From the sequence record NC_028863.1: DNA of 40,477 nt. One strand, written 5' to 3'. Within the stretch, counting starts at the first letter, position 1; each line of letters opens with the position of its first letter. Shown piece by piece: positions 3,436 through 38,648 of the stretch. Below the pieces are notes generated by a model. It was given only the letters and a program-made list of their open reading frames with translations. It did no database searches and was not told the DNA's origin. This DNA is from Escherichia phage P694. Made by a program: the position numbers and the translations under genes.

Positions 3436-3458
3436 TAATACGACTCACTATTGGGAAG
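3436..3458 (+). promoter_or_regulatory. Phage RNAP promoter (phiOR-like)
   Basis: TAATACGACTCACTATTGGGAAGG, one mismatch to the T7 consensus at -1. Confidence 0.8.
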
Positions 3459-3615
3459 GGCACCCTAAGACAACTTAAAGACACTTAAAGACTGCATATG
3501 CAAAGTGCATACTTAGTGACTAACTCTAAGAGACCCTTACAGTGAGGGATGATAGTAATAGTAATTACATCCCCACTATCAGTGTAACCATCAAGTATAA
3601 CAAGGAGGACGCTCT

Positions 3616-3771
3616 ATGCGCTTACTAACCGTGCTCAAGACACTGGCAACGCATCGAGTGACCTATAAATTTCTCGTTGTACTTGCTGCTTCCATTGGTC
3701 TCGCATCTAGTGCTGAACACATCGGTGAACTGGAGACTCTGCTTTGTTCTCTACTCACTTGTGTTCCTTAG
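3616..3771 (+). CDS. 19.5: gp19.5-like small protein
   Basis: 51 aa MRLLTVLKTLATHRVTYKFLVVL..., similar to T7 gp19.5 as recalled; AAGGAGG RBS. Confidence 0.75.
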   Translation: MRLLTVLKTLATHRVTYKFLVVLAASIGLASSAEHIGELETLLCSLLTCVP

Positions 3772-3859
3772 ACTGCTCATCGGCGCTTAATGCGCTCTTA
3801 GTGATTATGGTCGATATACATCTTCCCTATAATCACTGTAAGAAGTCAACTCTAAGAGT

Positions 3860-4300
3860 AACCCTTATGTACCCTCTATGGTCTACAGGGTCTCTTAGGG
3901 TCTCACCTTATGATAGAGCCTCTGTGGTTAACCTTATGAGAGACTTGATGTACCCTTTAAGAATCCTACAGAAAAATCTGAGTGGGTATCTCATAGTTCA
4001 TACACACCGAGTTCCCCCTATGGCCTCCTTCAGTCCCACCCAAAGAGTGCCACCCCTTATGATAACTTATGGTTTACTTAATGTCAATCCTTATGTGAGA
4101 CATTGGGTTAACTCTAGGTGTTACCACTAGATGTGGTGCTTAGAGTGACCTTATGACCACTATATGTAGTCCTCTCTGTGTCCCTATCTGTAATCACCTT
4201 ATGTTTCCTCTTAGAGTTAACACCTTATGTCACCTCTTATTAGCTACGCTAACCTTAATGTTACTCCTTATGGCTGCCTCTCCTTATGTTAACCTTCAGT
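3860..4300. repeat. Array of short dispersed CCTTATG-type repeats in the genome-end region
   Basis: At least 10 copies of (A/C)CCTTATG at irregular spacing (e.g. 3865, 3907, 3932, 4046, 4091, 4151, 4198, 4224, 4268, 4284); analogous to the CCTAAAG repeats at the T7 ends. Confidence 0.7.
3990..4200. repeat. Predicted location of the collapsed direct terminal repeat; physical left end near 3990 (approximate)
   Basis: TCTCATAGTTCATACACACCGAGTTCCCCCTATGG resembles the T7 left terminus TCTCACAGTGTACGGACC...TTCCCCCATAGGG; CTCTCTGTGTCCCTATCTGT (about 4175..4195) matches a T7 terminal-repeat segment. Confidence 0.35.
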
Positions 4301-4366
4301 CGGTGCCTTCAGTCTATAGACACCTATCGTTACCACTCTTAGACCAGCCTTAAAGACCATACAGCT

Positions 4367-4391
4367 AATGCGACTCACTATTGAGAATGGT
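4367..4391 (+). promoter_or_regulatory. Phage RNAP promoter variant (phiOL-like)
   Basis: TAATGCGACTCACTATTGAGAATGG; degenerate relative to the consensus seen elsewhere in the window. Confidence 0.5.
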
Positions 4392-4482
4392 TGTTTATAG
4401 TCTTATTACTATTCCCTTCCTTATAGGCTAACTTAAAGAGACTTAAAGAGACTCTGAGACTACTTAAAGTTTCAACTAGGGG

Positions 4483-5156: not shown

Positions 5157-5615
5157 ATGATTTACACTAACGAACCTGCAAACGTATTCTATGTACTGGT
5201 ATCAGCGTTCCGCTCCAACCTCTGCGATGAAGTCAATATGAGCCGTCATCGTCACATGGTTAACTCACTGCGTAATGCACCACTTGAATACGGTAGCGTT
5301 GAGTCTACAAATTTGACTGGTTGTTATCGAGAGGTTATCGCAAGTGCACCAACTGAGGAACTGACCGTTCGTGTACGCTGTGCTAACAAAGCTCAAGCAA
5401 TAGCGGTTGCACGTCTGGCGTGTAACGAGTTCGAGCAAGATTGTGTATTGGTCTATAAGTCACAGACGCACACGGCTGGCTTAGTGTACGCTCAAGGTAT
5501 TGCTGGCTATAAAGCTGAACGTCTGCCGGGTAGCTTCCAAGAAGTGCCTAAAGGCGCACCGCTTCAAGGTTGCTTCACGATTGATGAGTTCGGTCGCCGC
5601 TGGCAAGTACAGTAA
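5157..5615 (+). CDS. S-adenosylmethionine hydrolase/lyase (T3 gene 0.3-type anti-restriction)
   Basis: 152 aa; very similar to phage T3 SAMase as I recall it (MI.T.EPA.VFYVLVSAFRSNLCDEVNMSRHRHMV ... GCFTIDEFGRRWQVQ). Confidence 0.85.
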   Translation: MIYTNEPANVFYVLVSAFRSNLCDEVNMSRHRHMVNSLRNAPLEYGSVESTNLTGCYREVIASAPTEELTVRVRCANKAQAIAVARLACNEFEQDCVLVYKSQTHTAGLVYAQGIAGYKAERLPGSFQEVPKGAPLQGCFTIDEFGRRWQVQ

Positions 5616-5618
5616 GCG

Positions 5619-5697: not shown

Positions 5698-6060
5698 ATG
5701 GCTATGTCTAACATGACTTATAACAACGTTTTCGATCACGCTTACGAAATGCTGAAAGAAAATATCCGTTATGATGACATCCGTGACACTGATGACCTGC
5801 ACGATGCAGTGTACATGGCTGCTGAAATCGCCGTTCCGCACTATTACAGTGACGTTTTCAGCGTAATGGCTAGCGAAGGCATTGACCTTGAGTTCGAGGA
5901 CTCTGGTCTGATGCCGGACACCAAGGACGTAATCCGTATCCTGCAAGCGCGTATCTATGAGCAATTAACGATTGACCTTTGGGAAGACGCTGAGGACTTA
6001 CTGAACGAGTATCTTGAGGAAGTCGAAGAGTCTGAAGAGTACGAGGAGGATGAAGAGTAA
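5698..6060 (+). CDS. ocr: Ocr, DNA-mimic anti-restriction protein (T7 gene 0.3-type)
   Basis: 120 aa, strongly acidic, near-identical to T7 Ocr as recalled ([37 protein letters not shown]...). Confidence 0.95.
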
Positions 6061-6891: not shown

Positions 6892-7977
6892 ATGAACTAC
6901 ACCGACATTCAGGCACGTCTGGAAATCATCAAGTCTCTACCGCTTAGCGAACTGGACAAGCGCCAGCCTCTTTTGGTCGAACTGGCTGCTGACATCGTGA
7001 ACGGTGAAACGTGCGATGGTAACGCCACCGATGGCTCGAACGGCTTGGAGTATCAGGACTGGTGGCACACATTGGGTGCACTGATGTGTGATGCAGGTTT
7101 CCGCATGTTGGGTAATGGTCACTTTAGTGCGGCATACTCGCATGAACTGTTACCGGGTCGAGTCATCAAGGTTGGCTTTAAGAAAGAGGATTCAGGCGCT
7201 GCATACACTGCATTCTGTAGGATGCACCAAGGCCGAGCGGGTATCCCTAACGTCTATCACGTAGCACGTCATGCAGGTTGCTATACGGTCGTACTGGACC
7301 GCTTAAAAAGCTGTGACGACGATAATGATGACCATGGGGCATACGCTGACATCGCGCGTTGCTTTGTGGAGTCGGATTACTATGACTCAAGCGACTTTGC
7401 ACCGGGTGACTACGAGTTCATCGAGACATGCAAGATGATTCGTGAGTTCTTCAACGGTATTGCATCTTTCGACATGCACAGCGGGAACATTATGTTCGAC
7501 GATAACGATGTTCCGTACATCACTGACCCGGTGAGTTTCTCACATGACCGTGAACGTGAGGACGGTTTCCCTCTGGACCCGGAAGCACTGATTGCCGAGG
7601 TCGAGGCGATAGCTAACGAGCGCATCATTGAACGTTGTCGCAACCGCAAGGCCAAGCGTGACCCTAATGGAACCTTTCAGGTTAACCGCAAGGCCAACAT
7701 GAAACGCCGTAAGTGCAACCGTAAGTTACACGTCAAAGGCATGGCACAGTTTGTTAAAGGTCGCATCGAACGCAGGGCCATTGATAGAAACGAACGCCGT
7801 GCTGAGATGCTCATGGGGTCTGCATGGAATAACTTCTGGTTCCGCAATGGTCCCTCAGCGGCACGCAAGGTTGAACAAGTGAACGGCCTTAAGTGGCAAC
7901 TAGGGGACCGCCTCGCAATCCAAGCGGGTCTCCCTCTGAATATCGACAAGGTACTTGACGCTCAACTGATGGGCTGA
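6892..7977 (+). CDS. 0.7: Ser/Thr protein kinase, host shutoff (T7 gp0.7-like)
   Basis: 361 aa; conserved motifs GNGHFSAAYSH, VIKVGFKKEDSGAAYTAFCRM, FDMHSGNIMF as in T7 gp0.7. Confidence 0.9.
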   Translation: MNYTDIQARLEIIKSLPLSELDKRQPLLVELAADIVNGETCDGNATDGSNGLEYQDWWHTLGALMCDAGFRMLGNGHFSAAYSHELLPGRVIKVGFKKEDSGAAYTAFCRMHQGRAGIPNVYHVARHAGCYTVVLDRLKSCDDDNDDHGAYADIARCFVESDYYDSSDFAPGDYEFIETCKMIREFFNGIASFDMHSGNIMFDDNDVPYITDPVSFSHDREREDGFPLDPEALIAEVEAIANERIIERCRNRKAKRDPNGTFQVNRKANMKRRKCNRKLHVKGMAQFVKGRIERRAIDRNERRAEMLMGSAWNNFWFRNGPSAARKVEQVNGLKWQLGDRLAIQAGLPLNIDKVLDAQLMG

Positions 7978-8050: not shown

Positions 8051-10702
8051 ATGACTAACGTAATCAACGCACCAAAGAACGACTTCTCTGACATCGCTAA
8101 CGCAATCATGCCATACAACATTCTGGCTGACCATTACGGTGCACAGCTTGCAGCTACACAGCTTGAGTTAGAACATGAAGCGCACACTGAAGGCGAGAAG
8201 CGTTTCCTTAAGGCAATGGAACGTCAAATCAAAGCGGGTGAGTTCGGTGATAACGCAGTGGCTAAACCGCTCCTGTCATCTCTCGCACCAAAGTTTATCG
8301 AGGCGTGGAACACTTGGTTCACCGAGGTGGAAGCGAAGCGTGGCAAGCGTCCAGTGGCCTACAATCTGGTACAGAAGGTTGCACCTGAAGCGGCTGCTTT
8401 CATCACACTGAAGGTCACGCTGGCTTGCTTGACGAAAGAAGAGTTTACCAACCTGCAATCGGTCGCCACTAAGATTGGTCGTAGCATTGAAGATGAGTTA
8501 CGTTTCGGACGCATTCGTGATGAAGAAGCGAAACACTTTAAGAATCACGTACAGGAGGCACTGAACAAGCGCGTTGGTATCGTCTACAAGAAAGCATTCA
8601 TGCAAGCCGTAGAAGGCAAGATGTTAGACGCTGGTCAACTGCAAACCAAGTGGACTACATGGACACCTGAAGAATCAATTCACGTTGGTGTGCGCATGTT
8701 GGAACTGCTCATCGGGTCTACTGGTCTCGTTGAGTTACACCGACCGTTTGCTGGTAACGTTGAGAAGGATGGCGAGTACATCCAGTTAACCGAACAATAC
8801 GTTGACCTGTTATCTAAACGTGCTGGTGCACTGGCTGCAATCGCTCCAATGTATCAACCTTGCGTGGTCCCTCCTAAGCCTTGGACGAGTCCGGTCGGTG
8901 GCGGCTATTGGGCTGCTGGTCGCAAGCCTCTCTCTCTGGTTCGAACTGGTTCCAAGAAGGGACTTGAGCGTTACAACGACGTGTACATGCCTGAAGTTTA
9001 CAAGGCGGTGAACATCGCACAGAATACTCCTTGGAAGATTAACAAGAAGGTTCTGGCAGTGGTCAATGAGATTGTGAACTGGAAGCATTGCCCGGTTGAC
9101 GATGTACCTGCTCTCGAACGTGGTGAACTGCCTGTCAAACCTGAAGACATCGACACGAACGAAGCGGCTCTGAAAGCGTGGAAGAAAGCGGCCTCCGCAA
9201 TCTATCGCAAAGAGAAGGCCCGTGTGTCTCGTCGCATGAGCATGGAGTTCATGTTAGGGCAAGCCAACAAGTTCGCACAGTTTAAAGCTATCTGGTTCCC
9301 GATGAACATGGACTGGCGCGGTCGTGTGTATGCTGTACCGATGTTCAACCCGCAAGGCAACGACATGACCAAGGGTCTGTTAACGCTCGCTAAAGGTAAA
9401 CCAATCGGTGTCGATGGGTACTACTGGCTGAAGATTCACGGTGCTAACACTGCTGGCGTGGACAAGGTGGACTTTGCAGAACGCATCAAGTTCATTGAGG
9501 ACAACCACGAGAACATCATGAGCGTTGCGGCTGACCCGATTGCTAACACTTGGTGGGCTGAACAAGACTCTCCGTTCTGCTTCCTCGCGTTCTGCTTCGA
9601 GTATGCTGGCGTTCAACACCACGGTATGAACTACAACTGCTCTCTGCCGCTGGCGTTCGATGGCTCTTGCTCTGGTATTCAGCACTTCTCTGCAATGCTT
9701 CGTGATGAAGTAGGTGGACGCGCTGTTAACCTGATGCCAAGCAAGGAAGTACAAGACATCTACCGCATCGTTGCCGAACGTGTGAACGAAATCCTGAATC
9801 AAGATGTTATCAACGGGACCGACAACGAAGTAGAGACAGTGACCAACAAGGACACAGGCGAAATCACTGAGAAGCTGAAGTTAGGCACGAAGGAACTGGC
9901 TGGTCAATGGCTGGCATACGGTGTAACTCGCAAGGAAACTAAGCGTTCGGTCATGACGTTGGCTTACGGTTCCAAAGAGTACGGCTTCCGTGACCAAGTT
10001 CTTGAGGACACCATTCAGCCAGCTATCGACGATGGCAATGGATTGATGTTCACTCAACCGAACCAAGCTGCTAGCTATATGGCTAAACTGATTTGGAACG
10101 CTGTAACGGTGACTGTGGTCGCAGCGGTTGAAGCGATGAACTGGTTGAAGTCTGCTGCTAAACTTCTGGCTGCTGAAGTCAAGGACAAGAAGACTAAAGA
10201 GGTTCTCCGCAAGCGCTGCGCGGTACATTGGGTAACACCTGATGGCTTCCCTGTGTGGCAGGAGTATCGCAAGGCAGTACAGACTCGTTTGAACCTGATG
10301 TTCTTGGGTCAGATTCGTTTGCAGCCTACTGTGAACACCAACAAGGATAGCGGAATTGACGCACGTAAGCAGGAGTCAGGCATCGCACCTAACTTTGTTC
10401 ACTCAATGGACGGCAGCCACCTGAGAATGACTGTAGTGCGCTCCAATGAGGTCTACGGTGTGGAATCCTTCGCACTGATTCATGACTCCTTTGGTACTAT
10501 CCCTGCTGATGCTGGCAACCTGTTTAAAGCAGTGCGTGAAACGATGGTCAACACTTACGAAGAGAACGATGTACTTGCAGACTTCTATGAACAGTTTGCG
10601 GACCAGTTGCACGAGTCACAGCTTGACAAGATGCCTGAGATGCCAGCTAAAGGCGCTCTCGACCTCCAAGAAATCCTGAAGTCAGACTTTGCGTTTGCCT
10701 AA
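8051..10702 (+). CDS. 1: Single-subunit DNA-directed RNA polymerase
   Basis: 883 aa, same length as T7 RNAP, near-identical over long stretches including the C-terminal ...FAFA. Confidence 0.98.
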   Translation: MTNVINAPKNDFSDIANAIMPYNILADHYGAQLAATQLELEHEAHTEGEKRFLKAMERQIKAGEFGDNAVAKPLLSSLAPKFIEAWNTWFTEVEAKRGKRPVAYNLVQKVAPEAAAFITLKVTLACLTKEEFTNLQSVATKIGRSIEDELRFGRIRDEEAKHFKNHVQEALNKRVGIVYKKAFMQAVEGKMLDAGQLQTKWTTWTPEESIHVGVRMLELLIGSTGLVELHRPFAGNVEKDGEYIQLTEQYVDLLSKRAGALAAIAPMYQPCVVPPKPWTSPVGGGYWAAGRKPLSLVRTGSKKGLERYNDVYMPEVYKAVNIAQNTPWKINKKVLAVVNEIVNWKHCPVDDVPALERGELPVKPEDIDTNEAALKAWKKAASAIYRKEKARVSRRMSMEFMLGQANKFAQFKAIWFPMNMDWRGRVYAVPMFNPQGNDMTKGLLTLAKGKPIGVDGYYWLKIHGANTAGVDKVDFAERIKFIEDNHENIMSVAADPIANTWWAEQDSPFCFLAFCFEYAGVQHHGMNYNCSLPLAFDGSCSGIQHFSAMLRDEVGGRAVNLMPSKEVQDIYRIVAERVNEILNQDVINGTDNEVETVTNKDTGEITEKLKLGTKELAGQWLAYGVTRKETKRSVMTLAYGSKEYGFRDQVLEDTIQPAIDDGNGLMFTQPNQAASYMAKLIWNAVTVTVVAAVEAMNWLKSAAKLLAAEVKDKKTKEVLRKRCAVHWVTPDGFPVWQEYRKAVQTRLNLMFLGQIRLQPTVNTNKDSGIDARKQESGIAPNFVHSMDGSHLRMTVVRSNEVYGVESFALIHDSFGTIPADAGNLFKAVRETMVNTYEENDVLADFYEQFADQLHESQLDKMPEMPAKGALDLQEILKSDFAFA

Positions 10703-10709: not shown

Positions 10710-10731
10710 TAATACGACTCACTATTGGGAG
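10710..10731 (+). promoter_or_regulatory. Phage RNAP promoter (phi1.1A-like); candidate primary replication origin region
   Basis: TAATACGACTCACTATTGGGAG followed by a GCCTTCGGGC hairpin and an AT-rich leader. Confidence 0.8.
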
Positions 10732-10792
10732 CCTTCGGGCTTCCTACACTTTAAGATAACTTTAAGTTCTAACTCTAAGAGGAAACAACATT

Positions 10793-10924
10793 ATGCGTAA
10801 CTTCGAAAAGATGACCAAAAGTTCCAACCGTAACGCTCATGACTTCGAGGCAACTAAGGGTCGCAAGTTTAATAAACCATTACGCACCCGTGCGCATAAA
10901 CGCTGCTGGAAGGAGGCACTCTAA
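10793..10924 (+). CDS. 1.1: gp1.1-like small basic protein, copy A (T7-like allele)
   Basis: 43 aa MRNFEKMTKSSNRNAHDFEATKGRK..., close to T7 gp1.1 as recalled; GAGGAAA RBS. Confidence 0.75.
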   Translation: MRNFEKMTKSSNRNAHDFEATKGRKFNKPLRTRAHKRCWKEAL

Positions 10925-11196
10925 TGGGACGCTTATACAGTGGTAACTTAATAGCATACAAAGACGCTATCGAACGACTTAAAGAAGACCATGATGCAAA
11001 TGTGGTCGTTGAGACTTATCGCTATGAGGACTTCGCACAGCGACGGATGGTCGCCGGAGAGACACTTCGAGTGGTCTTACGGAATGGCTTAATGCTGACC
11101 GCTAAGTGTTTCGAACAGGATGATGCAGACGTTCGCTGTAATGCACAGACTGAATGGCTCCGCAAGGTTCACAGTGATATGAAGCACTGGAAGTAA
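10924..11196 (+). CDS. 1.2: gp1.2-like protein, copy A (divergent allele); dGTPase-inhibitor family
   Basis: 90 aa; shares the N-terminal MGRLYSGNL.A.K and C-terminal ...KHWK with copy B but is divergent in the middle. Confidence 0.7.
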   Translation: MGRLYSGNLIAYKDAIERLKEDHDANVVVETYRYEDFAQRRMVAGETLRVVLRNGLMLTAKCFEQDDADVRCNAQTEWLRKVHSDMKHWK

Positions 11197-11216
11197 TACG
11201 ACTCACTATTGGGGAG
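11194..11216 (+). promoter_or_regulatory. Phage RNAP promoter (phi1.1B-like)
   Basis: TAATACGACTCACTATTGGGGAG followed by a leader near-identical to 10732..10792. Confidence 0.8.
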
Positions 11217-11266
11217 CCTATGGGCTTCCTACACTTTAAGTTCTAACTCTAAGAGGAAACAACATT

Positions 11267-11416
11267 ATGCGTACCAACTTTGAACCAACCACTAAGCGCA
11301 ACAACGTAATCAATGAACATGGTGCTGAATGGCAGGAACGTAAAGACCGCATGAAGAAACGTCACAAGACACAACGTGGCAACTCTGAGAAACGCAACTG
11401 GAAGGAGACAATCTAA
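11267..11416 (+). CDS. gp1.1-like small basic protein, copy B (divergent allele)
   Basis: 49 aa MRTNFEPTTKRNNVINEHGAEWQERKDRMKKRHK...; same leader and RBS as copy A. Confidence 0.65.
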   Translation: MRTNFEPTTKRNNVINEHGAEWQERKDRMKKRHKTQRGNSEKRNWKETI

Positions 11417-11673
11417 TGGGTCGCTTATACGGTGGGAATCTTAGCGCATTCAAGGCCGCTGCTGGTCGAATCTTTAAGCTGGACTTAGTTGTCACATGTG
11501 ATGAATGGTATGAAGCACATATTCGTCTTGAGTGTATCAGGCTGCGCATAGAGGACCGGGATGGTCGCCTTATCGACTCTACTATTTGTAGTCATCATGA
11601 CGAAGACGTTCTCTATAGCACTTGTACCAATTGGCTGAACCGTATGTATGACCAGTTGAAAGACTGGAAGTAA
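11416..11673 (+). CDS. 1.2: gp1.2, inhibitor of host dGTP triphosphohydrolase, copy B (T7-like allele)
   Basis: 85 aa, same length as T7 gp1.2 and very similar as recalled (...CIRLRIEDRDGRLID...HHDEDVLY..CT.WLN.MYDQLKDWK). Confidence 0.85.
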   Translation: MGRLYGGNLSAFKAAAGRIFKLDLVVTCDEWYEAHIRLECIRLRIEDRDGRLIDSTICSHHDEDVLYSTCTNWLNRMYDQLKDWK

Positions 11674-11694
11674 TACGACTCACTATTGCGAGAG
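11671..11694 (+). promoter_or_regulatory. Phage RNAP promoter (phi1.3-like)
   Basis: TAATACGACTCACTATTGCGAGAGG. Confidence 0.7.
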
Positions 11695-11781: not shown

Positions 11782-12834
11782 ATGGAAATCACATTTAAGA
11801 CTTCGCCACATAAAGCTGTATCATTCGTTGAGTCTGCCGTTAATAAAGCCCTCGACAAAGCTGGCTACCTGATTGCTGACATTAAATATGATGGCGTTCG
11901 TGGTAACATTGTAGTTGACAATACGGCTGACTCTGCGTGGCTCTCTCGTGTCTCCAAAGAGATTCCTGCTCTGTCACATCTCAACGGGTACGACAAGCGC
12001 TGGGAGATGCTCCTGAAGGATGACCGCTGTATCTTCCCTGATGGATTCATGCTTGATGGTGAACTGATGGTCAAAGGCGTGGACTTTAACACAGGGTCTG
12101 GCTTACTGAGGACCAAGTGGCTCAAGCAGAAGAACTTCATGTACACTGATTGTTCTGAGTGGGGCAAGGACTGTAATGGAAAACCTTTTGAGCTAGACGT
12201 TAAGCGACTCAAGGTTGTTCTCTACGGTGTCATGCCGTTTGACTCTATGGTCTCCGGTGAGACCTACGAAGTGATGAACCTATTAATGCGTGAGCACGTT
12301 AAGGCTATGCTTCCTGTTCTGCGTGAGCACTTCCCTGAAATCGAATGGGACATCTCTGAGAGCTATGAAGTCTACGATATGGTAGAACTGAATGCCCTCT
12401 ATGAGAAAGCCCGTGCCGATGGTCATGAAGGTCTGGTAGTCAAAGACCCTCTGGGCTTCTACATGCGTGGCAAGAAGTCTGGCTACTGGAAGATGAAGCC
12501 TGAGTGTGAAGCTGATGGTGTCATCGTGGGACTCAACTGGGGTACTCCGGGTCTGGCTAATGAAGGTAAAGTGATTGGCTTCGAGGTTCTCCTTGAGTCC
12601 GGTCGCGTAGTCTCCGCTAACAATATCAGCCAAGCGTTGATGGATGAGTTCACCAATAACGTTTTTGATGCTACAAACATCCTAAATGTAAGAACTGAGA
12701 GTGATTGGGTTAACCCTTATCAGGGCTGGCAGTGCCAAGTGGCCTACATGGAACAAACTCCTGACGGTTCTCTGCGTCACCCATCGTTCGCTATGTTCCG
12801 TGGTGTCGAGTCAGACCCAACGGTCAAGATGTAA
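11782..12834 (+). CDS. 1.3: ATP-dependent DNA ligase
   Basis: 350 aa; adenylation motif KYDGVRG near residue 35; overall T7 ligase similarity as recalled. Confidence 0.92.
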   Translation: MEITFKTSPHKAVSFVESAVNKALDKAGYLIADIKYDGVRGNIVVDNTADSAWLSRVSKEIPALSHLNGYDKRWEMLLKDDRCIFPDGFMLDGELMVKGVDFNTGSGLLRTKWLKQKNFMYTDCSEWGKDCNGKPFELDVKRLKVVLYGVMPFDSMVSGETYEVMNLLMREHVKAMLPVLREHFPEIEWDISESYEVYDMVELNALYEKARADGHEGLVVKDPLGFYMRGKKSGYWKMKPECEADGVIVGLNWGTPGLANEGKVIGFEVLLESGRVVSANNISQALMDEFTNNVFDATNILNVRTESDWVNPYQGWQCQVAYMEQTPDGSLRHPSFAMFRGVESDPTVKM

Positions 12835-12876: not shown

Positions 12877-12880
12877 TTTC

Positions 12881-12901
12881 TATTAGACTCACTATGGAGG
12901 A
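12881..12901 (+). promoter_or_regulatory. Degenerate phage-promoter-like sequence
   Basis: TATTAGACTCACTATGGAGGA; shortened relative to the consensus. Confidence 0.35.
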
Positions 12902-12909
12902 ACGACCTC

Positions 12910-12990
12910 ATGCTATTTCTAATTGTTGCTATCATTGTTGCCACGTTTGCCCTCGTTATCATTGACGACAACTGCTGGCCTGATTGCTAA
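12910..12990 (+). CDS. Small hydrophobic peptide (26 aa; gene 1.4 position)
   Basis: MLFLIVAIIVATFALVIIDDNCWPDC; GGAGGA RBS 9 nt upstream. Confidence 0.4.
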   Translation: MLFLIVAIIVATFALVIIDDNCWPDC

Positions 12991-13010
12991 TACGACTCAC
13001 ATATGGAGGA
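12988..13010 (+). promoter_or_regulatory. Phage-promoter-like sequence overlapping the RBS of the next gene
   Basis: TAATACGACTCACATATGGAGGA. Confidence 0.45.
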
Positions 13011-14045: not shown

Positions 14046-14233
14046 GCAATTTAAACAAAGGGTCACTGGTCAACGGTGACAAGAAGTTCTTCGCAACGGT
14101 AGAAGGCCAAGGCCAATCGTTCGAAGTCCCTGTGTTCGCTGTGTCTCTTGAAGAGGCCAACGAGTTAGCTGAATGGCAATATGTCCCGGCTGGCTTCGCA
14201 GTGACACGCATCCGTCCAGACCGAAAGGTTTAA
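14042..14233 (+). CDS. 2: Inhibitor of host RNA polymerase (T7 gp2-like)
   Basis: 63 aa [22 protein letters not shown]...[18 protein letters not shown], close to T7 gp2 as recalled; strong RBS. Confidence 0.88.
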
Positions 14234-16072: not shown

Positions 16073-18028
<1,956 letters not shown>

Positions 18029-27018: not shown

Positions 27019-28062
27019 ATGGCTAACATGACTGGTGGACAACAGATTGGTAAGGATCAAGGTAAAGGCATGAGCGCTGGCGATAAACTGGCTCTGTTCC
27101 TGAAGGTCTTCGGTGGTGAAGTTCTGACTGCATTTACCCGTACCTCCGTAACTATGAACAAACACCTCGTGCGTTCTATTCAGTCCGGTAAGTCCGCGCA
27201 GTTCCCTGTGCTGGGTCGTACCAAAGCTGCTTATCTGCAACCGGGTGAGAACCTCGATGACAAACGTAAAGACATGAAGCACACTGAGAAGACCATTAAC
27301 ATTGATGGTTTGCTGACTGCTGACGTTCTGATTTACGACATCGAAGACGCAATGAACCACTATGACGTGCGCTCTGAGTATACTGCTCAGTTGGGCGAGT
27401 CTCTGGCTCTGGCTGCTGATGGCGCGGTACTGGCTGAAATGGCTAAACTGTGTAACCTCCCGGCTGCATCCAATGAGAACATCGCCGGTCTTGGTACTGC
27501 AAGTGTACTGGAAGTAGGCACTGCGGCTGACCTGCAAGGTGACCAAGTGAAGCTGGGTCAGGCAATCATTGCACAGTTGACTCTGGCTCGTGCTCGTCTG
27601 ACTAAGAACTACGTGCCGTCTGCTGACCGTACCTTCTACACCACTCCGGATAACTACTCCGCGATTCTGGCTGCTCTGATGCCTAACGCTGCCAACTATC
27701 AGGCGCTGATTGACCCGTCTACTGGTTCTATCCGCAACGTCATGGGCTTTGAAGTAATCGAAGTTCCTCACCTGACTGCTGGTGGTGCTGGTGATGACCG
27801 TCCAGAAGAAGGCACAAGCCCGTCTGGTCAGAAACACGCATTCCCTGTGACTGCTACGGGTGACACTAAGGTTGCTCTGGATACCGTTGTTGGTCTGTTC
27901 TGCCACCGCTCTGCCGTTGGTACTGTGAAGCTGAAAGACATGGCGCTGGAACGTGCTCGTCGTGCTAACTATCAGGCTGACCAGATTATCGCTAAGTACG
28001 CTATGGGTCACGGTGGTCTGCGTCCAGAAGCAGTAGGTGCACTGGTTTTCAAAAAGGCTTAA
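27019..28062 (+). CDS. 10A: Major capsid protein (10A)
   Basis: 347 aa; MA.MTGGQQ.G..QGKG N-terminus and near-identity to T7 gp10A across the protein; AAGGAGA RBS. Confidence 0.98.
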   Translation: MANMTGGQQIGKDQGKGMSAGDKLALFLKVFGGEVLTAFTRTSVTMNKHLVRSIQSGKSAQFPVLGRTKAAYLQPGENLDDKRKDMKHTEKTINIDGLLTADVLIYDIEDAMNHYDVRSEYTAQLGESLALAADGAVLAEMAKLCNLPAASNENIAGLGTASVLEVGTAADLQGDQVKLGQAIIAQLTLARARLTKNYVPSADRTFYTTPDNYSAILAALMPNAANYQALIDPSTGSIRNVMGFEVIEVPHLTAGGAGDDRPEEGTSPSGQKHAFPVTATGDTKVALDTVVGLFCHRSAVGTVKLKDMALERARRANYQADQIIAKYAMGHGGLRPEAVGALVFKKA

Positions 28063-28198: not shown

Positions 28199-28239
28199 AA
28201 CCCCTTGGGTGCCTTCGCGGGTGCTTGAGGGGTTTTTTT
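28199..28239 (+). terminator. Intrinsic terminator for phage RNAP (T-phi-like)
   Basis: AACCCCTTGGGTGCCTTCGCGGGTGCTTGAGGGGTTTTTTT: GC-rich hairpin plus a 7-T run, close to the T7 T-phi sequence. Confidence 0.85.
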
Positions 28240-28258
28240 CAACTCACTAATGGGAGGA
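28234..28258 (+). promoter_or_regulatory. Truncated phage-promoter-like core immediately after the terminator (phi11-like)
   Basis: TTTTTTCAACTCACTAATGGGAGGA keeps the -9..+6 core but lacks the upstream TAATACG. Confidence 0.4.
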
Positions 28259-31284: not shown

Positions 31285-31308
31285 CAATACGACTCACTAT
31301 TGGGAAGG
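31285..31308 (+). promoter_or_regulatory. Phage RNAP promoter (phi13-like)
   Basis: CAATACGACTCACTATTGGGAAGG. Confidence 0.8.
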
Positions 31309-32372: not shown

Positions 32373-34652
32373 ATGAGTAAGTTAGCTCAAGCATTGGGTA
32401 GCATGAATGCTCCGTCTACTAGTCGTCTGCGTGGCACTGGTCGTGTGGAAGTGAAGGCTTCAACCGTCTATGAAGACCCTAAGTATGCCGAGAAGTCTAA
32501 GCTGATTGGCACTGTAGGTAAACTTGCTGAGATGGGTGCGGATGCTTACATGAAGTATGACCAGCACCAGAAGGATAAAGCAGATGAACGCTCTAACGAG
32601 ATTATTCGTAAGCTGACTCCTGAGCAACGTCGAGAGGCCATTAAGAATGGGACACTGTTATATCAGGATGACCCATATGCGATGGAAGCACTTAAGATTA
32701 AGACTGGTCGTAACGCTGCGTATCTTGTAGATGACGAAGTGGCACAGAAGGTGAAGAACGGTGAGTTCCGTACTCGTCAAGAGTTGGAAGAGTTCCGTCA
32801 CAGCCGACTGCAAGAAGCCGCTAAGAACTATGCGGAACAATTCGGTATCGACGAGACTGATGAGCACTATCAGAAAGGTTTCAACTCCGACATCACTGAA
32901 CGTAACATCGCCCTCTATGGTGCTCACGATAACTTCCTGAGTGACCAAGCTAAGAAGGGTGCTGTCATCAACAGTCGCGTAGAGTTGAACTCTGTGTTGA
33001 ACGACCCGGAAACCCTACGTTCTCCGTATGCTGGTGAGTTCTTTGAGAACTACTTCAGTGCTGGCTTGACGACTGGTAGTATCCCTAGTGATGACCAAGC
33101 GTTCACCATGATTAGCCAAGGTCTGTCTGACGTGGTTAACCGTGAAGGTGGTGGTCAGTTCTTACAACAGATTGAGAACCGCAAGGTCAAACTCCATGGC
33201 AAGGAGACTACCTTCAAGGAACTGATGGGTGCCGAACAGTGGAATAACTTGATGGTTAAGGCTCAACATAATGAGTTCCAGTTGAGTGCCAAGAAGACCG
33301 AGGCGTTCCAACTTAATGTGAACTCTGCGTTGAACCAAGAGAACGTGAACACTGGCTGGGAACAGTTGCAATCCATCAAGGCTGAACTGGACACACTGCA
33401 ACCGGGCGAAGAGATGACACCTGAACGTCAGGCGTTAATCAATGCACAGACGCAGATGCAGGACAGGATGAAGCGGGAGACCGCTGAGTTAGCCAAGCAG
33501 ATGGACAAGCAACAGAAGTCGATGAACAAGATGAACGTCATTGATGCACAGTTCCAGAAGCGACTCAATGGTCAGTATGTGTCTACTGCGTATGGCGATA
33601 TGCCAACAAATGAGAACACTGGTGAGTTCACTCATAGTGATATGGTCAATTATGCTAACAAGAAGCTGGCTGACATCGACGCTATGGGTATTCCTGATGC
33701 ACAGAAGGACCGCATGAAGCTCGACTACCTCAAGGCTGACTCCGATAAGGGTGCTTTCCGTACTGCGGTTGGTGAACTGATTGGTGATGCTGAGAAGGAG
33801 TGGACGTCCGCTGTGATTAACGGGAAGATGCCTGAAGATGGTGGAGTGGCACTTAATGCTCTTCGTCGTGTTCGTAATGCTGACCCTGAGTTGTTCGCTG
33901 CGCTGTATCCTGATAAGGCCGAGATGTTCCTCACTATGGACATGATGGACAACCAAGGGATTGACCCACAAATCCTGCTGGATGCAGATAAGGCTCGACA
34001 GTCTCTGACCAAAGAGATGCAGTACGAGGACGATAAGGCTTGGGCTTCTCTCATGAACAACTCTGAGTCTCCTGAGATTAAGTACATGCCGTCCCCTCTC
34101 CAGAATGGTGCTCGTAAGATTTACGACTCCGTTAAGTACCGCACAGGTAATCCCAACGCGGCAATGCAACAGGTCGATAAGTATCTCAAAGAGAACACTA
34201 CGACTCTCACAGGTGATGACGTTGATGGTGATACCATTGGTGTCTTAACGAGAAACTCCCTGCGTGTGACCGATGACCCTGACTCTTGGAAACAAGGTAA
34301 GGACATTATCGACACAGCCGCTAAGAAACTCGCTGAGACGAACCCTTGGGTGACTAACAAGCAACTCACTGTGTTCGAGCGTGGTGACTCTATCTACCTG
34401 ATGGACACTACCGGACAGGTAAACATTCGGTACGACAAGCAGTTGCTCTCGAAGATGTATCAAGAGAACCAAGCGAAGCTGGACGAGGAAGCCCGTAACA
34501 AGGCACTCAAAGATGCCAACAAGCGAACCCTACATACACGAGCTATGAACCGCAAGCGTGAACGTGAAGCTAAGAAGCCTAAACGCTCTGGCAGCATGTA
34601 CGATAGTGTGAGTGGCAAAGGTATTCTGGATACGCTAACTGGTAAAGACTAA
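32373..34652 (+). CDS. 15: Internal virion protein C (gp15-like)
   Basis: 759 aa (T7 gp15 is 747); position and RBS AAAGGAGG. Confidence 0.85.
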   Translation: MSKLAQALGSMNAPSTSRLRGTGRVEVKASTVYEDPKYAEKSKLIGTVGKLAEMGADAYMKYDQHQKDKADERSNEIIRKLTPEQRREAIKNGTLLYQDDPYAMEALKIKTGRNAAYLVDDEVAQKVKNGEFRTRQELEEFRHSRLQEAAKNYAEQFGIDETDEHYQKGFNSDITERNIALYGAHDNFLSDQAKKGAVINSRVELNSVLNDPETLRSPYAGEFFENYFSAGLTTGSIPSDDQAFTMISQGLSDVVNREGGGQFLQQIENRKVKLHGKETTFKELMGAEQWNNLMVKAQHNEFQLSAKKTEAFQLNVNSALNQENVNTGWEQLQSIKAELDTLQPGEEMTPERQALINAQTQMQDRMKRETAELAKQMDKQQKSMNKMNVIDAQFQKRLNGQYVSTAYGDMPTNENTGEFTHSDMVNYANKKLADIDAMGIPDAQKDRMKLDYLKADSDKGAFRTAVGELIGDAEKEWTSAVINGKMPEDGGVALNALRRVRNADPELFAALYPDKAEMFLTMDMMDNQGIDPQILLDADKARQSLTKEMQYEDDKAWASLMNNSESPEIKYMPSPLQNGARKIYDSVKYRTGNPNAAMQQVDKYLKENTTTLTGDDVDGDTIGVLTRNSLRVTDDPDSWKQGKDIIDTAAKKLAETNPWVTNKQLTVFERGDSIYLMDTTGQVNIRYDKQLLSKMYQENQAKLDEEARNKALKDANKRTLHTRAMNRKREREAKKPKRSGSMYDSVSGKGILDTLTGKD

Positions 34653-34675: not shown

Positions 34676-37600
34676 GTGGATAAGTATAACCCGAACGAAC
34701 CGCATGAATATGATGCGTTATTTCAACAAGCTGCTGACACACATGGAGTCTCCTATGGCCTTCTTCGGAAGGTCGGTTGGGTAGAGTCCCGCTTTAAGCC
34801 TACGGCTCAATCACCAACAGGACCGAGAGGTGTCATGCAGTTCACTAAGGCAACTGGTCAGGCTTATGGTCTCCAGAACGATGAAGATTTTAATGACCCG
34901 GCTAAGTCCATTGATGCAGGTGCTCGTTACCTTGCAGACCTCGTTAAGAAGTATAATGGTGATGAACTTAAAGCTGCCCTAGCGTACAACCAAGGTGAAG
35001 GACGTAATGGTAAGCCTCAACTGGAAGCCTACGATTCTGGTAACTTTGCAAACATTGGGGACGAAGGTCGTAACTATCTGCGTTCACTTCTGGATGTCGC
35101 TAAGTCTCCTAAGAGTGGAGACATTGAGTCATTCGGCGGTATCACCCCAAAGGCTAAAGGGATTCCGTTTGATGCTGCGATGAGTGGTATCGGGAAGAAA
35201 GGAAAGGTAACAACAGAACTCCCTGAGTCTCACGAAATGTCCTTTCAAGGTAAAGAACAGGCCGCTCCCAATCAGCCGTTCGGTAAAGACTATTGGGAAG
35301 CAAAAGGAACAACTCTTGACGAAGCCAATGAGCGTTCAACCTTCTTCGGATTCGGTAGTGCTGCTGAAGCAGAACTCTCCAACTCAACCTTGGGTGTTGC
35401 CTTCCGTGCTGGTAAGCGCGACAATGGTTTTGATGTGCTCACTGACGTACTTCAACCGACACGGTTTAATAGCCACATATGGTCGCCTGAAGAACTGGAG
35501 AAGATTCGGACTGAAGTAAAGAACCCTGCGTACATGAACGTTGTACTTGGTGGTTCCGCTGAGAACCTTGACGAGCTAATCAAAATGGCTAACGAGAACT
35601 TCGAGGCTGATGCTAAGGCTGCTGATGCTGGACTTGGTGCCAAGCTGTCTGCTGGCCTGATTGGTGCTGGTGTGGACCCGTTGACCTACGTCCCACTCGC
35701 AGGGAGTACAGCCAAGGGATTCAAACTGGTGAACAAGGCATTGATGGTGGGTGCTCAAGCTGGTGCACTTAACGTTGCCTCTGAGGGTCTGCGTACATCC
35801 GTTGCTGGTGGTAATGCTCACTATGCTGAAGCTGCCCTTGCTGGGATGTTACTGGCTGGTGGACTGACTGCTGTGGCAGATGGTGTTGCCGCTGGTCTCC
35901 GTAAGTCTGGTGCTGAACAGATTGAGAACCCCTTTGCTGCTGCACAGATGCGCTTTGAGGCTCGTGAGACTGCACGTAACACTGGTGGTTATGATGCAAG
36001 CCGTATGCCTCCTAGTGAAGACCGAGTGTTCTCACAGCACAACGGCGTTGAGTATTCACCTCTTGAGACCGAACCGGGTGCCGTAGTGTTGCGTGATGGT
36101 TCTATTATCAGTGACACCAACTTAGCTAACCCGATGACAGCCAGAGAGTTCGCCGAGGTAGACCCTGAACGTGCTGCTTGGGGATTGCCTATGCGTGGTC
36201 TGAGTGAAATCGGTCTGAGAACTCTACGTTCTGAACATGCTGAAATCCGTGGTCTCGCTAAGGACTTAGTGCGTTCACCTACAGGGATGGAGTCTGGCTC
36301 ACATGGTAAGTTCGGTGCTACCGCATCTGACATCAAAGAGCGACTGCACAGTACCAACCAGCGAACCTACAATGACCTCTATGGTGCAATGAAGGAAGCA
36401 ATGGCTGACCCCGAGTGGTCTGTGGGTATGTTCAAGAGTGGTGCTCAAGGTGCCCGTCAAGAAATCTATCGTCGTGCTGCTGTGGCTATCGAGCGTCCTG
36501 AACTTCAGGCTAACTTGACCAAGGCAGAGCGTAAGGTGATGGACATCATGAAGGAACACTTTGACCTCAAGCGGGAGATGATGGAGAACCCGTCGATGTT
36601 CGGTAACAAGGCCAACTCTATCTTCCCTAACAGTCGTCACAAAGGGACTTACGTTCCTCATGTGTACTCACGGGAAGCCAAGCAGTTGTACTCACAGGCT
36701 CTTGGTGGCTCTGATGGTTTACAGGAAGCAATCGCTGCAAGCTGGATGACCTCTTATCGTTCACGTCCAGAAGTTAAGGCTCGTGTAGATGAGCACTTAG
36801 CGGAGACCTTGGGCATCGACACGAAGGCTGTAACCGAAGAGATGGTGATGAAACATGCCAGCGACAAGGCTTATGGTATTGCGAAGACAGATGAGTTCAA
36901 CTCTTCAAGTGTCATTGACGATAACATTGAGGGTCTCGTTGGTATTGAGAACAACTCATTCCTTGAAGCCCGTAACCTATTCGATTCTGACATGCCAGTC
37001 ACCCTACCTAATGGACAGCCATTCTCTGTGAACGACCTCCGTGACTTCGATATGAAGCATGTGATGCCAGCATATGACCGCCGCGTTGATGGTGACATTG
37101 CTATCATGGGTGGCACAGGGAAGACCACTGCTGAACTGAAGGATTCCATTATGGCTCTCGATAAGAAGTCAGAAGGGAAGGGCACGATGAAAGGTGAAGT
37201 GGAAGCACTTAAGGATACCGTTAAGATTCTCACTGGTCGTGCTCGACGTAATCAGGATACTGTAGGTGACACTATGGTCCGTGCCCTGTCCGATATGTCC
37301 TTCTTTACGAAGAACGCATATATGGGCTTGCAGAACCTAACCGAAATCTCCGGTATGTTGGCGAAGGGTAACATTCGTGCGATGCTTCATGGTATTCCGG
37401 TACTGCGTGACTTAGCGTTCCGCAACAAGCCAGTCTCCGGTAGTGAACTCAAAGAACTCCACTCTATGGTGTTCGGTAAAGAGTTCGACCAGTTAATCCG
37501 ACCGACTCGTCAAGACATCATTCAGCGACTCCGTGAGTCAACTGATACACCTGATGTTGCAGCAAAGGTTGTCGGTTCTATTAAGCACACAACTCAAGAG

Positions 37601-38623
37601 TTAGCTGCCCGTTCCCCACTGACCAAGTTCCTCAACGGTACATCAAACTACCTTCTGGACATGGCTCGACAGGGTGTGATGGGTGATGTGGTCACTCACG
37701 CTATTACAGGCAAAGGTGCCAACAAGTGGATTAAAGGTGACATGCTGAAGTCTGCGAGTATCTCTAAGGAACAGTGGGAAGGCATTCAGTCTCTCATCCG
37801 GGAGAACGTGACTCGTGGTGAAGACGGTAAGTTCACCTTCAAGGACAAGCGTAAGCTGGCTAACGACCCTCGTGCTATGGACTTATGGCGTTTAGCTGAT
37901 AAGGTTGCTGATGAGACGATGCTCCGACCTCATAAGGTTTCCTTACAGGATTCCCATGCGTTTGGTGCTACCGCTAAGTTAGTCCTTCAGTTTAAGTCGT
38001 TTGTCATCAAGTCGATGAACTCTAAGTTTATCCGCTCTGGCAACGAAGCCTTTAAGAATCATCGTGCTATGGACATGGCGCTGACCTATGCTATCTCTGG
38101 TGGTCTTGCTGGTTCCTACTACGTGGCACAGGCTCACTTGAAAGCTGCTGGTCTTCCTAAAGAGCAACAGAAGGATTACTTGAAGAAAGCTCTGGACCCT
38201 AAGATGATTGCCTACGCTGCGGCCTCCCGAAGTTCACACCTTGGGTCTCCGTTGAGTATCGCCAACTTCGCTATGGGTGCTGCCGGTTACGACCAAGGTC
38301 TTATGGTCCGCTCTACGATTCTACCTAAAGGTGATGACAAGCGTGAGCGCAATAAGGCAGTAACTTCTCGTGACATGGGTGATTCCATTATGGGCGCTAT
38401 TGGTGAACAGGTTCCTGCTCTTGGGTTCGCTGGTGCCACTCTTGCTGCTGGTCGAAATGCTTATGGTGTCCTTACGGCTCCTAACAAAGTGACCGAGCGT
38501 GAGATGATGACTGGCTTGATGAATGCCCACCGAGAGATGATTCCTAACGACCCAATCTCTCAGCAGATGCTCATTAAGTTCTATGAGGCCAACGGTGTTC
38601 ACATTAAGGCTGACAAGAAGTAA
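34676..38623 (+). CDS. 16: Internal virion protein D with N-terminal lytic transglycosylase domain (gp16-like); GTG start
   Basis: 1315 aa; starts at GTG 34676 preceded by GGAGG; transglycosylase motif ...WVESRF.PTA.S.TGP.G.MQFTKAT...ALAYNQGEG. Confidence 0.93.
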   Translation: MDKYNPNEPHEYDALFQQAADTHGVSYGLLRKVGWVESRFKPTAQSPTGPRGVMQFTKATGQAYGLQNDEDFNDPAKSIDAGARYLADLVKKYNGDELKAALAYNQGEGRNGKPQLEAYDSGNFANIGDEGRNYLRSLLDVAKSPKSGDIESFGGITPKAKGIPFDAAMSGIGKKGKVTTELPESHEMSFQGKEQAAPNQPFGKDYWEAKGTTLDEANERSTFFGFGSAAEAELSNSTLGVAFRAGKRDNGFDVLTDVLQPTRFNSHIWSPEELEKIRTEVKNPAYMNVVLGGSAENLDELIKMANENFEADAKAADAGLGAKLSAGLIGAGVDPLTYVPLAGSTAKGFKLVNKALMVGAQAGALNVASEGLRTSVAGGNAHYAEAALAGMLLAGGLTAVADGVAAGLRKSGAEQIENPFAAAQMRFEARETARNTGGYDASRMPPSEDRVFSQHNGVEYSPLETEPGAVVLRDGSIISDTNLANPMTAREFAEVDPERAAWGLPMRGLSEIGLRTLRSEHAEIRGLAKDLVRSPTGMESGSHGKFGATASDIKERLHSTNQRTYNDLYGAMKEAMADPEWSVGMFKSGAQGARQEIYRRAAVAIERPELQANLTKAERKVMDIMKEHFDLKREMMENPSMFGNKANSIFPNSRHKGTYVPHVYSREAKQLYSQALGGSDGLQEAIAASWMTSYRSRPEVKARVDEHLAETLGIDTKAVTEEMVMKHASDKAYGIAKTDEFNSSSVIDDNIEGLVGIENNSFLEARNLFDSDMPVTLPNGQPFSVNDLRDFDMKHVMPAYDRRVDGDIAIMGGTGKTTAELKDSIMALDKKSEGKGTMKGEVEALKDTVKILTGRARRNQDTVGDTMVRALSDMSFFTKNAYMGLQNLTEISGMLAKGNIRAMLHGIPVLRDLAFRNKPVSGSELKELHSMVFGKEFDQLIRPTRQDIIQRLRESTDTPDVAAKVVGSIKHTTQELAARSPLTKFLNGTSNYLLDMARQGVMGDVVTHAITGKGANKWIKGDMLKSASISKEQWEGIQSLIRENVTRGEDGKFTFKDKRKLANDPRAMDLWRLADKVADETMLRPHKVSLQDSHAFGATAKLVLQFKSFVIKSMNSKFIRSGNEAFKNHRAMDMALTYAISGGLAGSYYVAQAHLKAAGLPKEQQKDYLKKALDPKMIAYAAASRSSHLGSPLSIANFAMGAAGYDQGLMVRSTILPKGDDKRERNKAVTSRDMGDSIMGAIGEQVPALGFAGATLAAGRNAYGVLTAPNKVTEREMMTGLMNAHREMIPNDPISQQMLIKFYEANGVHIKADKK

Positions 38624-38624
38624 A

Positions 38625-38648
38625 CAATACGACTCACTATTGGGAAGG
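38625..38648 (+). promoter_or_regulatory. Phage RNAP promoter (phi17-like)
   Basis: CAATACGACTCACTATTGGGAAGG followed by a GGGAAGGCT...AGCTTCCC hairpin. Confidence 0.8.

Follow-up and report, generated by a model that had tools for sequence, protein, structure and literature searches.

Escherichia phage P694 (NC_028863.1), whose whole record of 40,477 nucleotides was analysed and is referred to here as the window, encodes a single-subunit phage RNA polymerase (RNAP) and carries 17 predicted promoters for this enzyme. The closest DNA matches, obtained by megablast of both halves of the window against a phage collection, are 91-93% identical over 82-96% of the query. The best matches are the Escherichia phages nasanit, P483, D226 and pO103, together with BA14, 285P, Erwinia phage FE44 and Yersinia phage PYPS50, and all of them fall in or adjoin the genus Berlinvirus (Studiervirinae). 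Judged by its sequence the window is a Berlinvirus, namely a T7-like phage of the group comprising BA14, Kvp1, Berlin and PP74.

The 17 sites are codirectional with the genes, and every one of them either lies between two genes or straddles a stop codon. The gene contexts involved are 19/19.5, 1/1.1, 1.2/1.3, 1.3/1.5, 2/2.5, 3.5/4, 4/4.3, 4.5/4.7, 6/6.5, 8/9, 9/10, 10/11, 12/13 and 16/17. Names for the sites can be taken over from BA14 and Kvp1, which provides a transcription map of P694 and is of minor importance for annotation. The polymerase gene, the predicted promoters with their weight-matrix scores and the terminator associated with one of them are as follows.

8051-10702, plus strand: gene 1, single-subunit phage RNA polymerase of 883 amino acids, assigned from the open reading frame and homology.
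3436-3458, plus strand: phiOR, TAATACGACTCACTATTGGGAAG, score 40.3; 23/23 identical to the annotated BA14 phiOR; contains the 22-mer TAATACGACTCACTATTGGGAA; between genes 19 and 19.5.
4366-4388, plus strand: phiOL, TAATGCGACTCACTATTGAGAAT, predicted weak or replication-associated type, score 25.3; 21/23 against the annotated BA14 phiOL; just right of the terminal repeat.
10710-10732, plus strand: phi1.05, TAATACGACTCACTATTGGGAGC, score 37.6; orthologue of BA14 and Kvp1 phi1.05; 8 nt past the gene 1 stop; predicted 5' hairpin from +1, -12.4 kcal/mol.
11194-11216, plus strand: phi1.1, TAATACGACTCACTATTGGGGAG, score 39.2; across the stop of the first gene 1.2 copy; predicted 5' hairpin from +1, -12.6 kcal/mol.
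11671-11693, plus strand: phi1.3, TAATACGACTCACTATTGCGAGA, score 36.1; orthologue of BA14 and Kvp1 phi1.3, with which it shares an unusual C at +2; upstream of the ligase gene.
12880-12902, plus strand: phi1.5, CTATTAGACTCACTATGGAGGAA, predicted weak, G at -1, with +1 to +6 also serving as Shine-Dalgarno sequence, score 10.8 (the lowest); 23/23 identical to the annotated BA14 phi1.5.
12988-13010, plus strand: phi1.6, TAATACGACTCACATATGGAGGA, degenerate at -4/-3 and overlapping a Shine-Dalgarno sequence, score 21.2; 22/23 against the annotated BA14 phi1.6.
14231-14253, plus strand: phi2.5, TAATAGGACTCACTATTGGGGAG, score 36.1; orthologue of BA14 and Kvp1 phi2.5, with G at -12 in common; across the gene 2 stop; predicted 5' hairpin, -10.3 kcal/mol.
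16000-16022, plus strand: phi3.8/4A, TAATAGAACTCACTATGGGAGGA, A at -11 and G at -1, score 21.0; orthologue of the BA14 promoter annotated as 'phi' at 10827 and of Kvp1 phi4A; predicted 5' hairpin from +1.
17963-17985, plus strand: phi4.3, CAATACAACTCACTAATGGGACA, score 25.5; 23/23 identical in PP74 and 285P; phi4.3 is annotated in BA14; predicted 5' hairpin from +1, -9.8 kcal/mol.
18615-18637, plus strand: phi4.7, CTATTCAACTCACTAATGGGAGA, score 19.0; 23/23 identical to the annotated BA14 phi4.7; upstream CTATTC as in T7 phi4.7.
22879-22901, plus strand: phi6.5, CAATACGACTCACTATTGGAGAG, score 35.2; 23/23 identical in PP74; orthologue of the annotated BA14 phi6.5.
25870-25892, plus strand: phi9, TAATACGACTCACTAATGGGAGA, score 35.8; 23/23 identical to phi9 of BA14 and Kvp1; across the gene 8 stop; predicted 5' hairpin from +1, -12.2 kcal/mol.
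26848-26870, plus strand: phi10, TAATACGACTCACTATTGGGAGA, one mismatch to the T7 consensus (differing from T7 phi10 only at -1); 23/23 identical in BA14, PP74, 285P and Kvp1 phi10.
28199-28239, plus strand: T-phi terminator downstream of gene 10, hairpin and T-run read from the sequence AACCCCTTGGGTGCCTTCGCGGGTGCTTGAGGGGTTTTTTT; homologous to the annotated BA14 terminator at 23119-23156.
28235-28257, plus strand: phi11, TTTTTCAACTCACTAATGGGAGG, score 15.7; position and core as in the annotated phi11 of Kvp1 (CTAATAGACTCACTAATGGGAGG) and T3.
31285-31307, plus strand: phi13, CAATACGACTCACTATTGGGAAG, score 39.3; 23/23 identical in BA14, PP74, 285P and Kvp1 phi13.
38625-38647, plus strand: phi17, CAATACGACTCACTATTGGGAAG, score 39.3; 23/23 identical in BA14, PP74, 285P and Kvp1 phi17; 2 nt past the gene 16 stop; predicted 5' hairpin from +1, -9.5 kcal/mol.

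The sites have been identified by means of a weight matrix made from the 10 best sites, with which both strands were scanned and 30 dinucleotide-preserving shuffles were used as control. Site starts were placed in register with T7 position -17, and each site spans -17 to +6 (23 bp). The scan yields 17 sites, all on the plus strand, with scores of 10.8-40.3 against a shuffle maximum of 10.5 over both strands; the best score on the minus strand of the window is 7.8, and nothing there rises above the shuffle level. A search with the T7 23-mer, allowing at most 3 mismatches, gives 5 sites in the window and none in 100 shuffles. The core GACTCACT occurs 13 times where 2.45 occurrences are expected, and 12 of the 13 are on the plus strand. 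The single minus-strand copy, at 32157, has no promoter context, and an origin of the sites by chance or on the minus strand has been rejected. A first-pass annotation of the sequence had proposed both the repeated promoters and a search of this kind, and the matrix recovers exactly the 17 sites that it had listed. All 17 were correctly located, apart from a shift of one base at 4367, 12881, 17962, 18614, 22878 and 28234.

Position +1 is G in 17/17 sites and positions -10 to -5 are invariant (ACTCAC), while -11 is G in 13 and A in 4, and -2 is T in 12 and A in 5. Position -1 is occupied by T except in phi1.5 and phi3.8/4A, which have G; this makes 15 sites with T and two with G, and neither A nor C in any, which bears out the earlier claim of T rather than A at this position. 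The motif proposed at first pass is thus real; the strings given for it vary more than was implied, at -11, at +4 to +6 (AAG, AGA, GAG or AGC) and in phi1.6, which reads CACATATGG. The core had also been placed at -12 to -5, where the block is in fact CGACTCAC; GACTCACT occupies -11 to -4. The consensus stretch directly 5' of position -1, ahead of the GGGAGA start, is TAATACGACTCACTAT.

Promoters of Studiervirinae are known as elements of about 23 bp that start with G and have CTCACTA as an invariant core at -9 to -3, present in about 10-17 copies per genome together with a gene for the cognate single-subunit RNAP, and the window, with its gene 1, conforms to this description. The CTCACTA core is also seen in 40 annotated promoters of Kvp1, T3 and fPS-59. 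The form characteristic of Berlinvirus, CGACTCAC at -12 to -5 with T at -1 (TATT or TAAT before GGGA), is found in the window, as it is in BA14, PP74, 285P and Kvp1, and the strict T7 (Teseptimavirus) form with A at -1 (TATA before GGGAGA) in 0/17 sites. A start at the T, or a register shifted by 1 nt, has been rejected, because the spacing from CTCACTA to the G-run is that of T7 and the 5' hairpins of the predicted transcripts begin at that G. Stable 5' hairpins of -9.5 to -12.6 kcal/mol are predicted for seven transcripts (phi1.05, 1.1, 2.5, 3.8/4A, 4.3, 9 and 17), and in each of them the first base of the 5' arm is the predicted +1 or +2, a feature also of T7 phi10.

The relatives of P694 carry corresponding promoters. 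The BA14 record (EU734171; GenBank, 2008) annotates 16 promoters, namely phiOL, 1.05, 1.1, 1.3, 1.5, 1.6, 2.5, an unnamed one before gene 4, phi4.3, 4.7, 6.5, 9, 10, 13, 17 and phiOR. All 16 have a counterpart in the same gene context of the window, and the 17th window site corresponds to phi11 of Kvp1. The window and BA14 sites share the signature TATTGGGA or TAATGGGA. The matrix scan covered the window, BA14, PP74, 285P and T7; for Kvp1, T3 and fPS-59 the comparison was confined to the promoters given in their records. With this matrix all 17 known T7 promoters are recovered, and BA14, PP74 and 285P yield 16 sites apiece. In number, order and gene context, the promoters of the window agree with those of the Berlinviruses BA14, Kvp1 (FJ194439; Lingohr et al. 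2008, PMC2579914), Berlin and PP74, which share with the window the consensus TAATACGACTCACTATTGGGAGA or one ending in CACTAATGGGAGA, with T at -1 and with many sites identical at 23/23 positions. A few window sites differ from those of BA14 by T or A at -2 or at +4 to +6. The window also has phi11, like Kvp1 and PP74 and unlike BA14, and its phi1.05 would drive a second gene 1.1/1.2 cassette in place of gene 1.05. The annotated phi1.5 of Kvp1 is orthologous to that of the window, with different upstream bases.

Compared with BA14, PP74 and 285P, the 23-mers are 93.8% conserved, and the adjoining stretches of 60 nt reach 78.4% on the upstream side and 82.8% on the downstream side. The promoter is kept at phi1.1, phi4.3, phi3.8/4A and phi10 although one or both flanks are unrelated: phi1.1 retains 19/23 positions between flanks unrelated to those of BA14, PP74 and 285P, and the 60 nt downstream of phi10 match only at 14-36/60 among the relatives. 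The 60 nt downstream of phi3.8/4A, for their part, are conserved at 59-60/60. These promoters, at 11194, 16000, 17963 and 26848, sit exactly on mosaic boundaries, and their position there fits a role as recombination joints between gene modules.

The gene 1 RNAP is 98% identical to those of BA14 and Kvp1, 97% to that of Berlin and 94% to that of PP74, and shares 82% with fPS-59, 76% with T7 and 75% with T3. Roughly 80 phage records have an RNAP of at least 95% identity. Its C-terminal region had been described at first pass as near-identical to that of T7 RNAP, which is an overstatement: residues 700-883 are 84.8% identical, residues 1-325 (the N-terminal domain) 63.6%. The base-contacting residues are conserved nevertheless. 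The specificity loop (739-770) agrees with T7 at 26/32 positions, the differences being K740R, P742A, I743V, F755I, I761V and E768G, and reads QTRLNLMFLGQIRLQPT, in which R746, N748, R756 and Q758 are those of T7; T3 has K746 and D748. According to a 2025 covariation study (PMC11880802), the specificity of T7-like RNAPs is dominated by residues 748, 756 and 758 and by five positions in the upstream part of the promoter. Since the contact residues are unchanged, the gene 1 enzyme belongs to the T7 recognition class, in agreement with the unchanged promoter sequence at -17 to -2.

The likeness to T7 extends to the promoters themselves. Window phi10 is identical to T7 phi10 at -17 to -2 and +1 to +6, and both phages contrast consensus late promoters with degenerate early and middle ones that overlap Shine-Dalgarno sequences; 5' transcript hairpins and loop contact residues are also common to the two. 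T7 differs in that its class III promoters are six identical 23-mers, whereas the late promoters of the window vary at -17, -2 and +4 to +6, and in having phi1.1A/B and phi4c and lacking phi1.05 and phi11. T3 (Teetrevirus) shares part of the promoter map (phi1.05, phi1.1, and phi11 after T-phi) and the CTCACTA core, but has ACCCT at -12 to -8 and D in place of N748 in its RNAP, which puts it in another specificity class, and has A or C at -1. The T3 record also holds a perfect T7 consensus promoter before gene 17 (32757-32779) that is unused by the T3 RNAP; a match to the consensus is by itself no proof of use by the resident polymerase. The Helsettvirus fPS-59 resembles the window in its TATTG and in its core, GACTCACT or AACTCACT; it differs from the window in its more distant RNAP, in a commoner A at -11 and in GAGA often following +1.

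We consider the 17 copies to be the complete middle and late promoter set for the gene 1 RNAP of a Berlinvirus, ordinary and typical of the genus, and assign to this reading, drawn from sequence comparison and from the in vitro activity reported for PP74 RNAP on a 22-mer that the window shares, a probability of about 0.93. By analogy with T7, the RNAP would bind the duplex from -17 to -5, its AT-rich recognition loop reading the minor groove at about -17 to -13. At about -11 to -7 the major groove would be read by the specificity-loop residues R746, N748, R756 and Q758. Positions -4 to -1, with their AT-rich TATT or TAAT, would then be opened by the intercalating hairpin, and RNA synthesis would start with GTP at the G following the -1 T. 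The recognition class would stay T7-like because the -1 T lies in the melted initiation region, outside the part read by the specificity loop. The consensus copies phi10, phi9, phi13, phi17, phi6.5, phiOR, phi1.05 and phi1.1 are expected to be strong promoters. A weak, class-II-type group may comprise phiOL, phi1.5, phi1.6, phi3.8/4A, phi4.3, phi4.7 and phi11, marked by G at -1, by A at -11 or by an upstream part that departs from the consensus.

Several points weigh against this assignment. Promoter activity in P694 itself is predicted, and the division into strong and weak promoters is taken over from T7. The weakest sites lie near the shuffle ceiling (phi1.5 at 10.8 against 10.5) and owe their place to orthology and computational annotation. 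The conservation comparison is anchored on the promoters and is slightly biased in their favour. Finally, phi11 is missing from BA14 and is therefore dispensable, and maybe very weak.

The phi11 site follows directly on the T-run of T-phi, 10 nt before the start codon of gene 11; the T-run supplies its AT-rich upstream part at -17 to -13, and its positions +1 to +6 double as the Shine-Dalgarno sequence of gene 11. It had been taken at first pass for a truncated core, and this is not the case: orthology with phi11 of Kvp1, T3 and PP74 (where the site is at 22382) leads us to reject the view that it is a truncated remnant. In BA14 a matrix scan and inspection of the region 23150-23185 did not find phi11, only the ribosome-binding site of gene 11 being left there. 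The promoter is thus polymorphic within the genus, present in the window, PP74 and Kvp1 (as also in T3) and not in BA14, and may be regarded as a known, dispensable promoter that is possibly very weak.

Four other sites had been set apart as shortened or degenerate copies. They are indeed degenerate members of the set, predicted to be weaker, and are the orthologues of phiOL, phi1.5, phi1.6 and phi3.8/4A. It could be argued that some of the degenerate copies (phi1.5, phi1.6, phi11 and phiOL) do not work as promoters and are relics, or are kept for ribosome-binding sites, replication priming or packaging. Their matrix scores are low (10.8-25), and in phi1.5, phi1.6 and phi11 positions +1 to +6 read GGAGGA or GGGAGG and precede an ATG by 8-10 nt, so that their predicted transcripts begin inside the Shine-Dalgarno sequence of the next gene and this sequence could explain their conservation; in BA14, where phi11 is lacking, only the Shine-Dalgarno sequence is left. 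T7 phiOL and phiOR, moreover, are linked to replication and concatemer processing and not to gene expression. The conservation reaches, however, well upstream of the Shine-Dalgarno sequence, with ACTCACTA intact in three of the four sites (phi1.6 has ACTCACAT) and 20-23 of 23 positions identical across genomes in the degenerate sites. The overlap is the same in the T7 homologues phi1.5, phi1.6, phi4.3 and phi4.7, all of which are mapped, active promoters, and phi11 is annotated in Kvp1 as well as in T3. A lack of promoter function in some of these copies appears quite improbable to us, and they are retained here as predicted weak members of the promoter set.

In-frame ATG codons inside promoters (CACTAATGGGA, CATATGGAGG) have been noted at 28250, 13003 and 17978. 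They cause a mechanical caller of open reading frames to extend genes 11, 1.6 and 4.3 upstream, the true starts of which are, by homology with BA14, at about 28268, 13018 and 18029 respectively.

The T at position -1 had been presented at first pass as a departure from T7. The consensus does differ, but T is not foreign to T7: A is found at -1 in 16/17 T7 promoters and the exception, phi2.5, reads CACTATT followed by AGGGAA. This only T7 promoter with T at -1 starts with A, and the window never has A at -1. The annotated promoters of Kvp1 have T or G at -1 throughout, those of fPS-59 have TATTG in 11/11 cases, and those of T3 have A or C. The promoter logos of the 2008 Kvp1 paper already showed a promoter type common to Kvp1 and Berlin (PMC2579914). 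The T at -1 is a genus-level trait already known from database annotation and from the literature.

An exact search of the IMG/VR database with the 19-mer ATACGACTCACTATTGGGA gave 44 stretches on 17 contigs, and the length of 15 of these contigs is 38-41 kb. Of the 17, 13 are Berlinvirus-like, with only T or G at -1, two are T7-like and two are mixed. The T7-type contigs 2974585177 and 2974599467 have mostly TATAG or TAAAG promoters and one TATTGGGA promoter each, and the contigs 2595698912 and 3300034358 have TATTG mixed with TAAAG. Position -1 thus varies within the T7 recognition class. Over the approximately 100 sites of five Berlinvirus genomes and the 13 Berlinvirus-like contigs A never occurs at -1, while position -2 switches freely between T and A in orthologous promoters.

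Activity has been reported for a closely related pair. The 22-mer TAATACGACTCACTATTGGGAA, which occurs verbatim in the window at 3436, is the predicted promoter of the Berlinvirus PP74 of Pectobacterium. According to PMC11475235, PP74 RNAP transcribes from it in a cell-free screen and, as purified enzyme, in vitro, and outperformed T7 RNAP in the screen. The same source reports that expression by PP74 RNAP was not quantifiable when the promoter was non-cognate, and that output was lost with 'even a single nucleotide change'. Among the promoters listed in PMC11475235 none is one base away from the PP74 22-mer, and the T7 promoter, which differs from it by a single base, is not in that list. For T7 RNAP, an RNA/DNA ratio of 73.3 was obtained on TAATACGACTCACTATTGG against 169 +/- 19 for the wild type, so that the -1T variant has about 43% activity, at rank 7821/7847 in a barcoded library of 7,847 T7 promoter variants (PMC5937735 supplement).

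These data bear on two explanations of the -1 T. The somewhat better one, in our opinion, is a neutral founder event: the T would have become fixed on a single occasion, in an ancestor shared by Berlinvirus and Helsettvirus, would be barely read by the polymerase and would have spread to all promoters through homogenisation or recombination, without a function. Position -1 lies in the melted region, where AT-richness is presumed to be all that counts, a T there leaves T7 RNAP with substantial activity, T3 has A or C, and the uniform TATTG of fPS-59, with an RNAP 82% identical, suggests inheritance by a wider clade. The founder event gives, however, no account of the lack of reversion to A over about 100 sites in which -2 and +4 to +6 vary, and it conflicts with the single-nucleotide statement in PMC11475235, if that statement concerns -1.

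The second explanation, which we regard as possible but doubtful, is a co-evolved specificity whereby T at -1 is indispensable to the Berlinvirus RNAP and the T7 promoter is not accepted by it, making the pair orthogonal to T7 despite the same sequence at -17 to -2. It would account for T or G and never A at -1 in promoters whose orthologues are free to have either T or A at -2, and it finds a possible structural counterpart in the intercalating hairpin, which differs from that of T7 by Q232P, G238E, Q239K and T243Y; residues 232, 238, 239 and 243 are fixed, and unlike those of T7 and T3, in 6/6 RNAPs of the -1T group. On the other hand, 79 residue columns fixed in this group are scattered over the whole protein, as phylogeny alone predicts, and the missing A could reflect the shared ancestry of genomes that are about 90% identical. 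The tolerance of T7 RNAP for -1T (43% activity, and its own phi2.5) and the T7-type contigs that mix TATAG with one TATTG suggest that -1 is soft for this class of enzyme. The single-nucleotide statement on PP74 RNAP also favours a co-evolved specificity, its link to the T7 promoter being our own; the variant behind it is named in neither the text nor the supplement of PMC11475235 as far as these were accessible, and the assay described there is a coupled reticulocyte-lysate reporter. A literature search for structural contacts made by the -1 template base yielded no usable information.

Were the -1 T a true determinant, which we hold to be rather unlikely, Berlinvirus RNAPs would discriminate strongly against the T7 promoter while T7 RNAP would use theirs at about 40%. 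Such a one-way, single-nucleotide orthogonality would then be encoded outside the specificity loop, perhaps in the hairpin with its four substitutions, and one base outside the classical recognition region would set the cross-reactivity between T7-like systems. Pairs of Berlinvirus RNAP and promoter have been explored for in vitro mRNA synthesis, a field to which P694 would add an enzyme 94-98% identical to those of its relatives and 17 natural promoter variants of predicted graded strength; the practical value of this is modest.

The genes follow the T7/T3 order. The terminal repeat is present once, the window representing a linear T7-like genome in circularly permuted form. The last 700 nt of BA14 correspond to 3480-4185 and its first 400 nt to 3989-4413, which puts the terminal repeat, or the junction of the concatemer, at about 3989-4185. 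The genes located are listed below.

1588-3348: gene 19.
From 3616: gene 19.5.
5157-5615: gene 0.3.
6892-7977: gene 0.7.
11782-12834: ligase gene.
16128-17882: gene 4.
19064-21178: gene 5.
24271-25872: gene 8.
27019-28062: gene 10.
34676-38623: gene 16.
38693-40420: gene 17.

Two diverged tandem cassettes, each combining a promoter and a 5' hairpin with genes 1.1 and 1.2 (the latter for a dGTPase inhibitor), are found at 10710-11193 and 11194-11670. They are 72% identical to each other in DNA and 34-44% in protein. The first occupies the place of gene 1.05 in BA14, Kvp1 and P483, and its identity with the cassette found in phages P1338, pO103 and A7 is 96-97%.

The window also has two adjoining, different anti-restriction genes, a T3-type gene 0.3 at 5157-5615 and a T7-type Ocr-like gene at 5698-6060. 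The former belongs to the S-adenosylmethionine (SAM) hydrolase family, for which PHROGs has the label 'SAM-dependent methyltransferase'. Only the T3-type gene 0.3 is annotated in BA14 and Kvp1, and only the Ocr-like gene in PP74.

Directly behind gene 17, at 185-562, there is a small open reading frame that resembles gene 17.2 annotated in Kvp1 and has a match in a family of tail-fibre assembly proteins (phrog_136, E = 3e-6).

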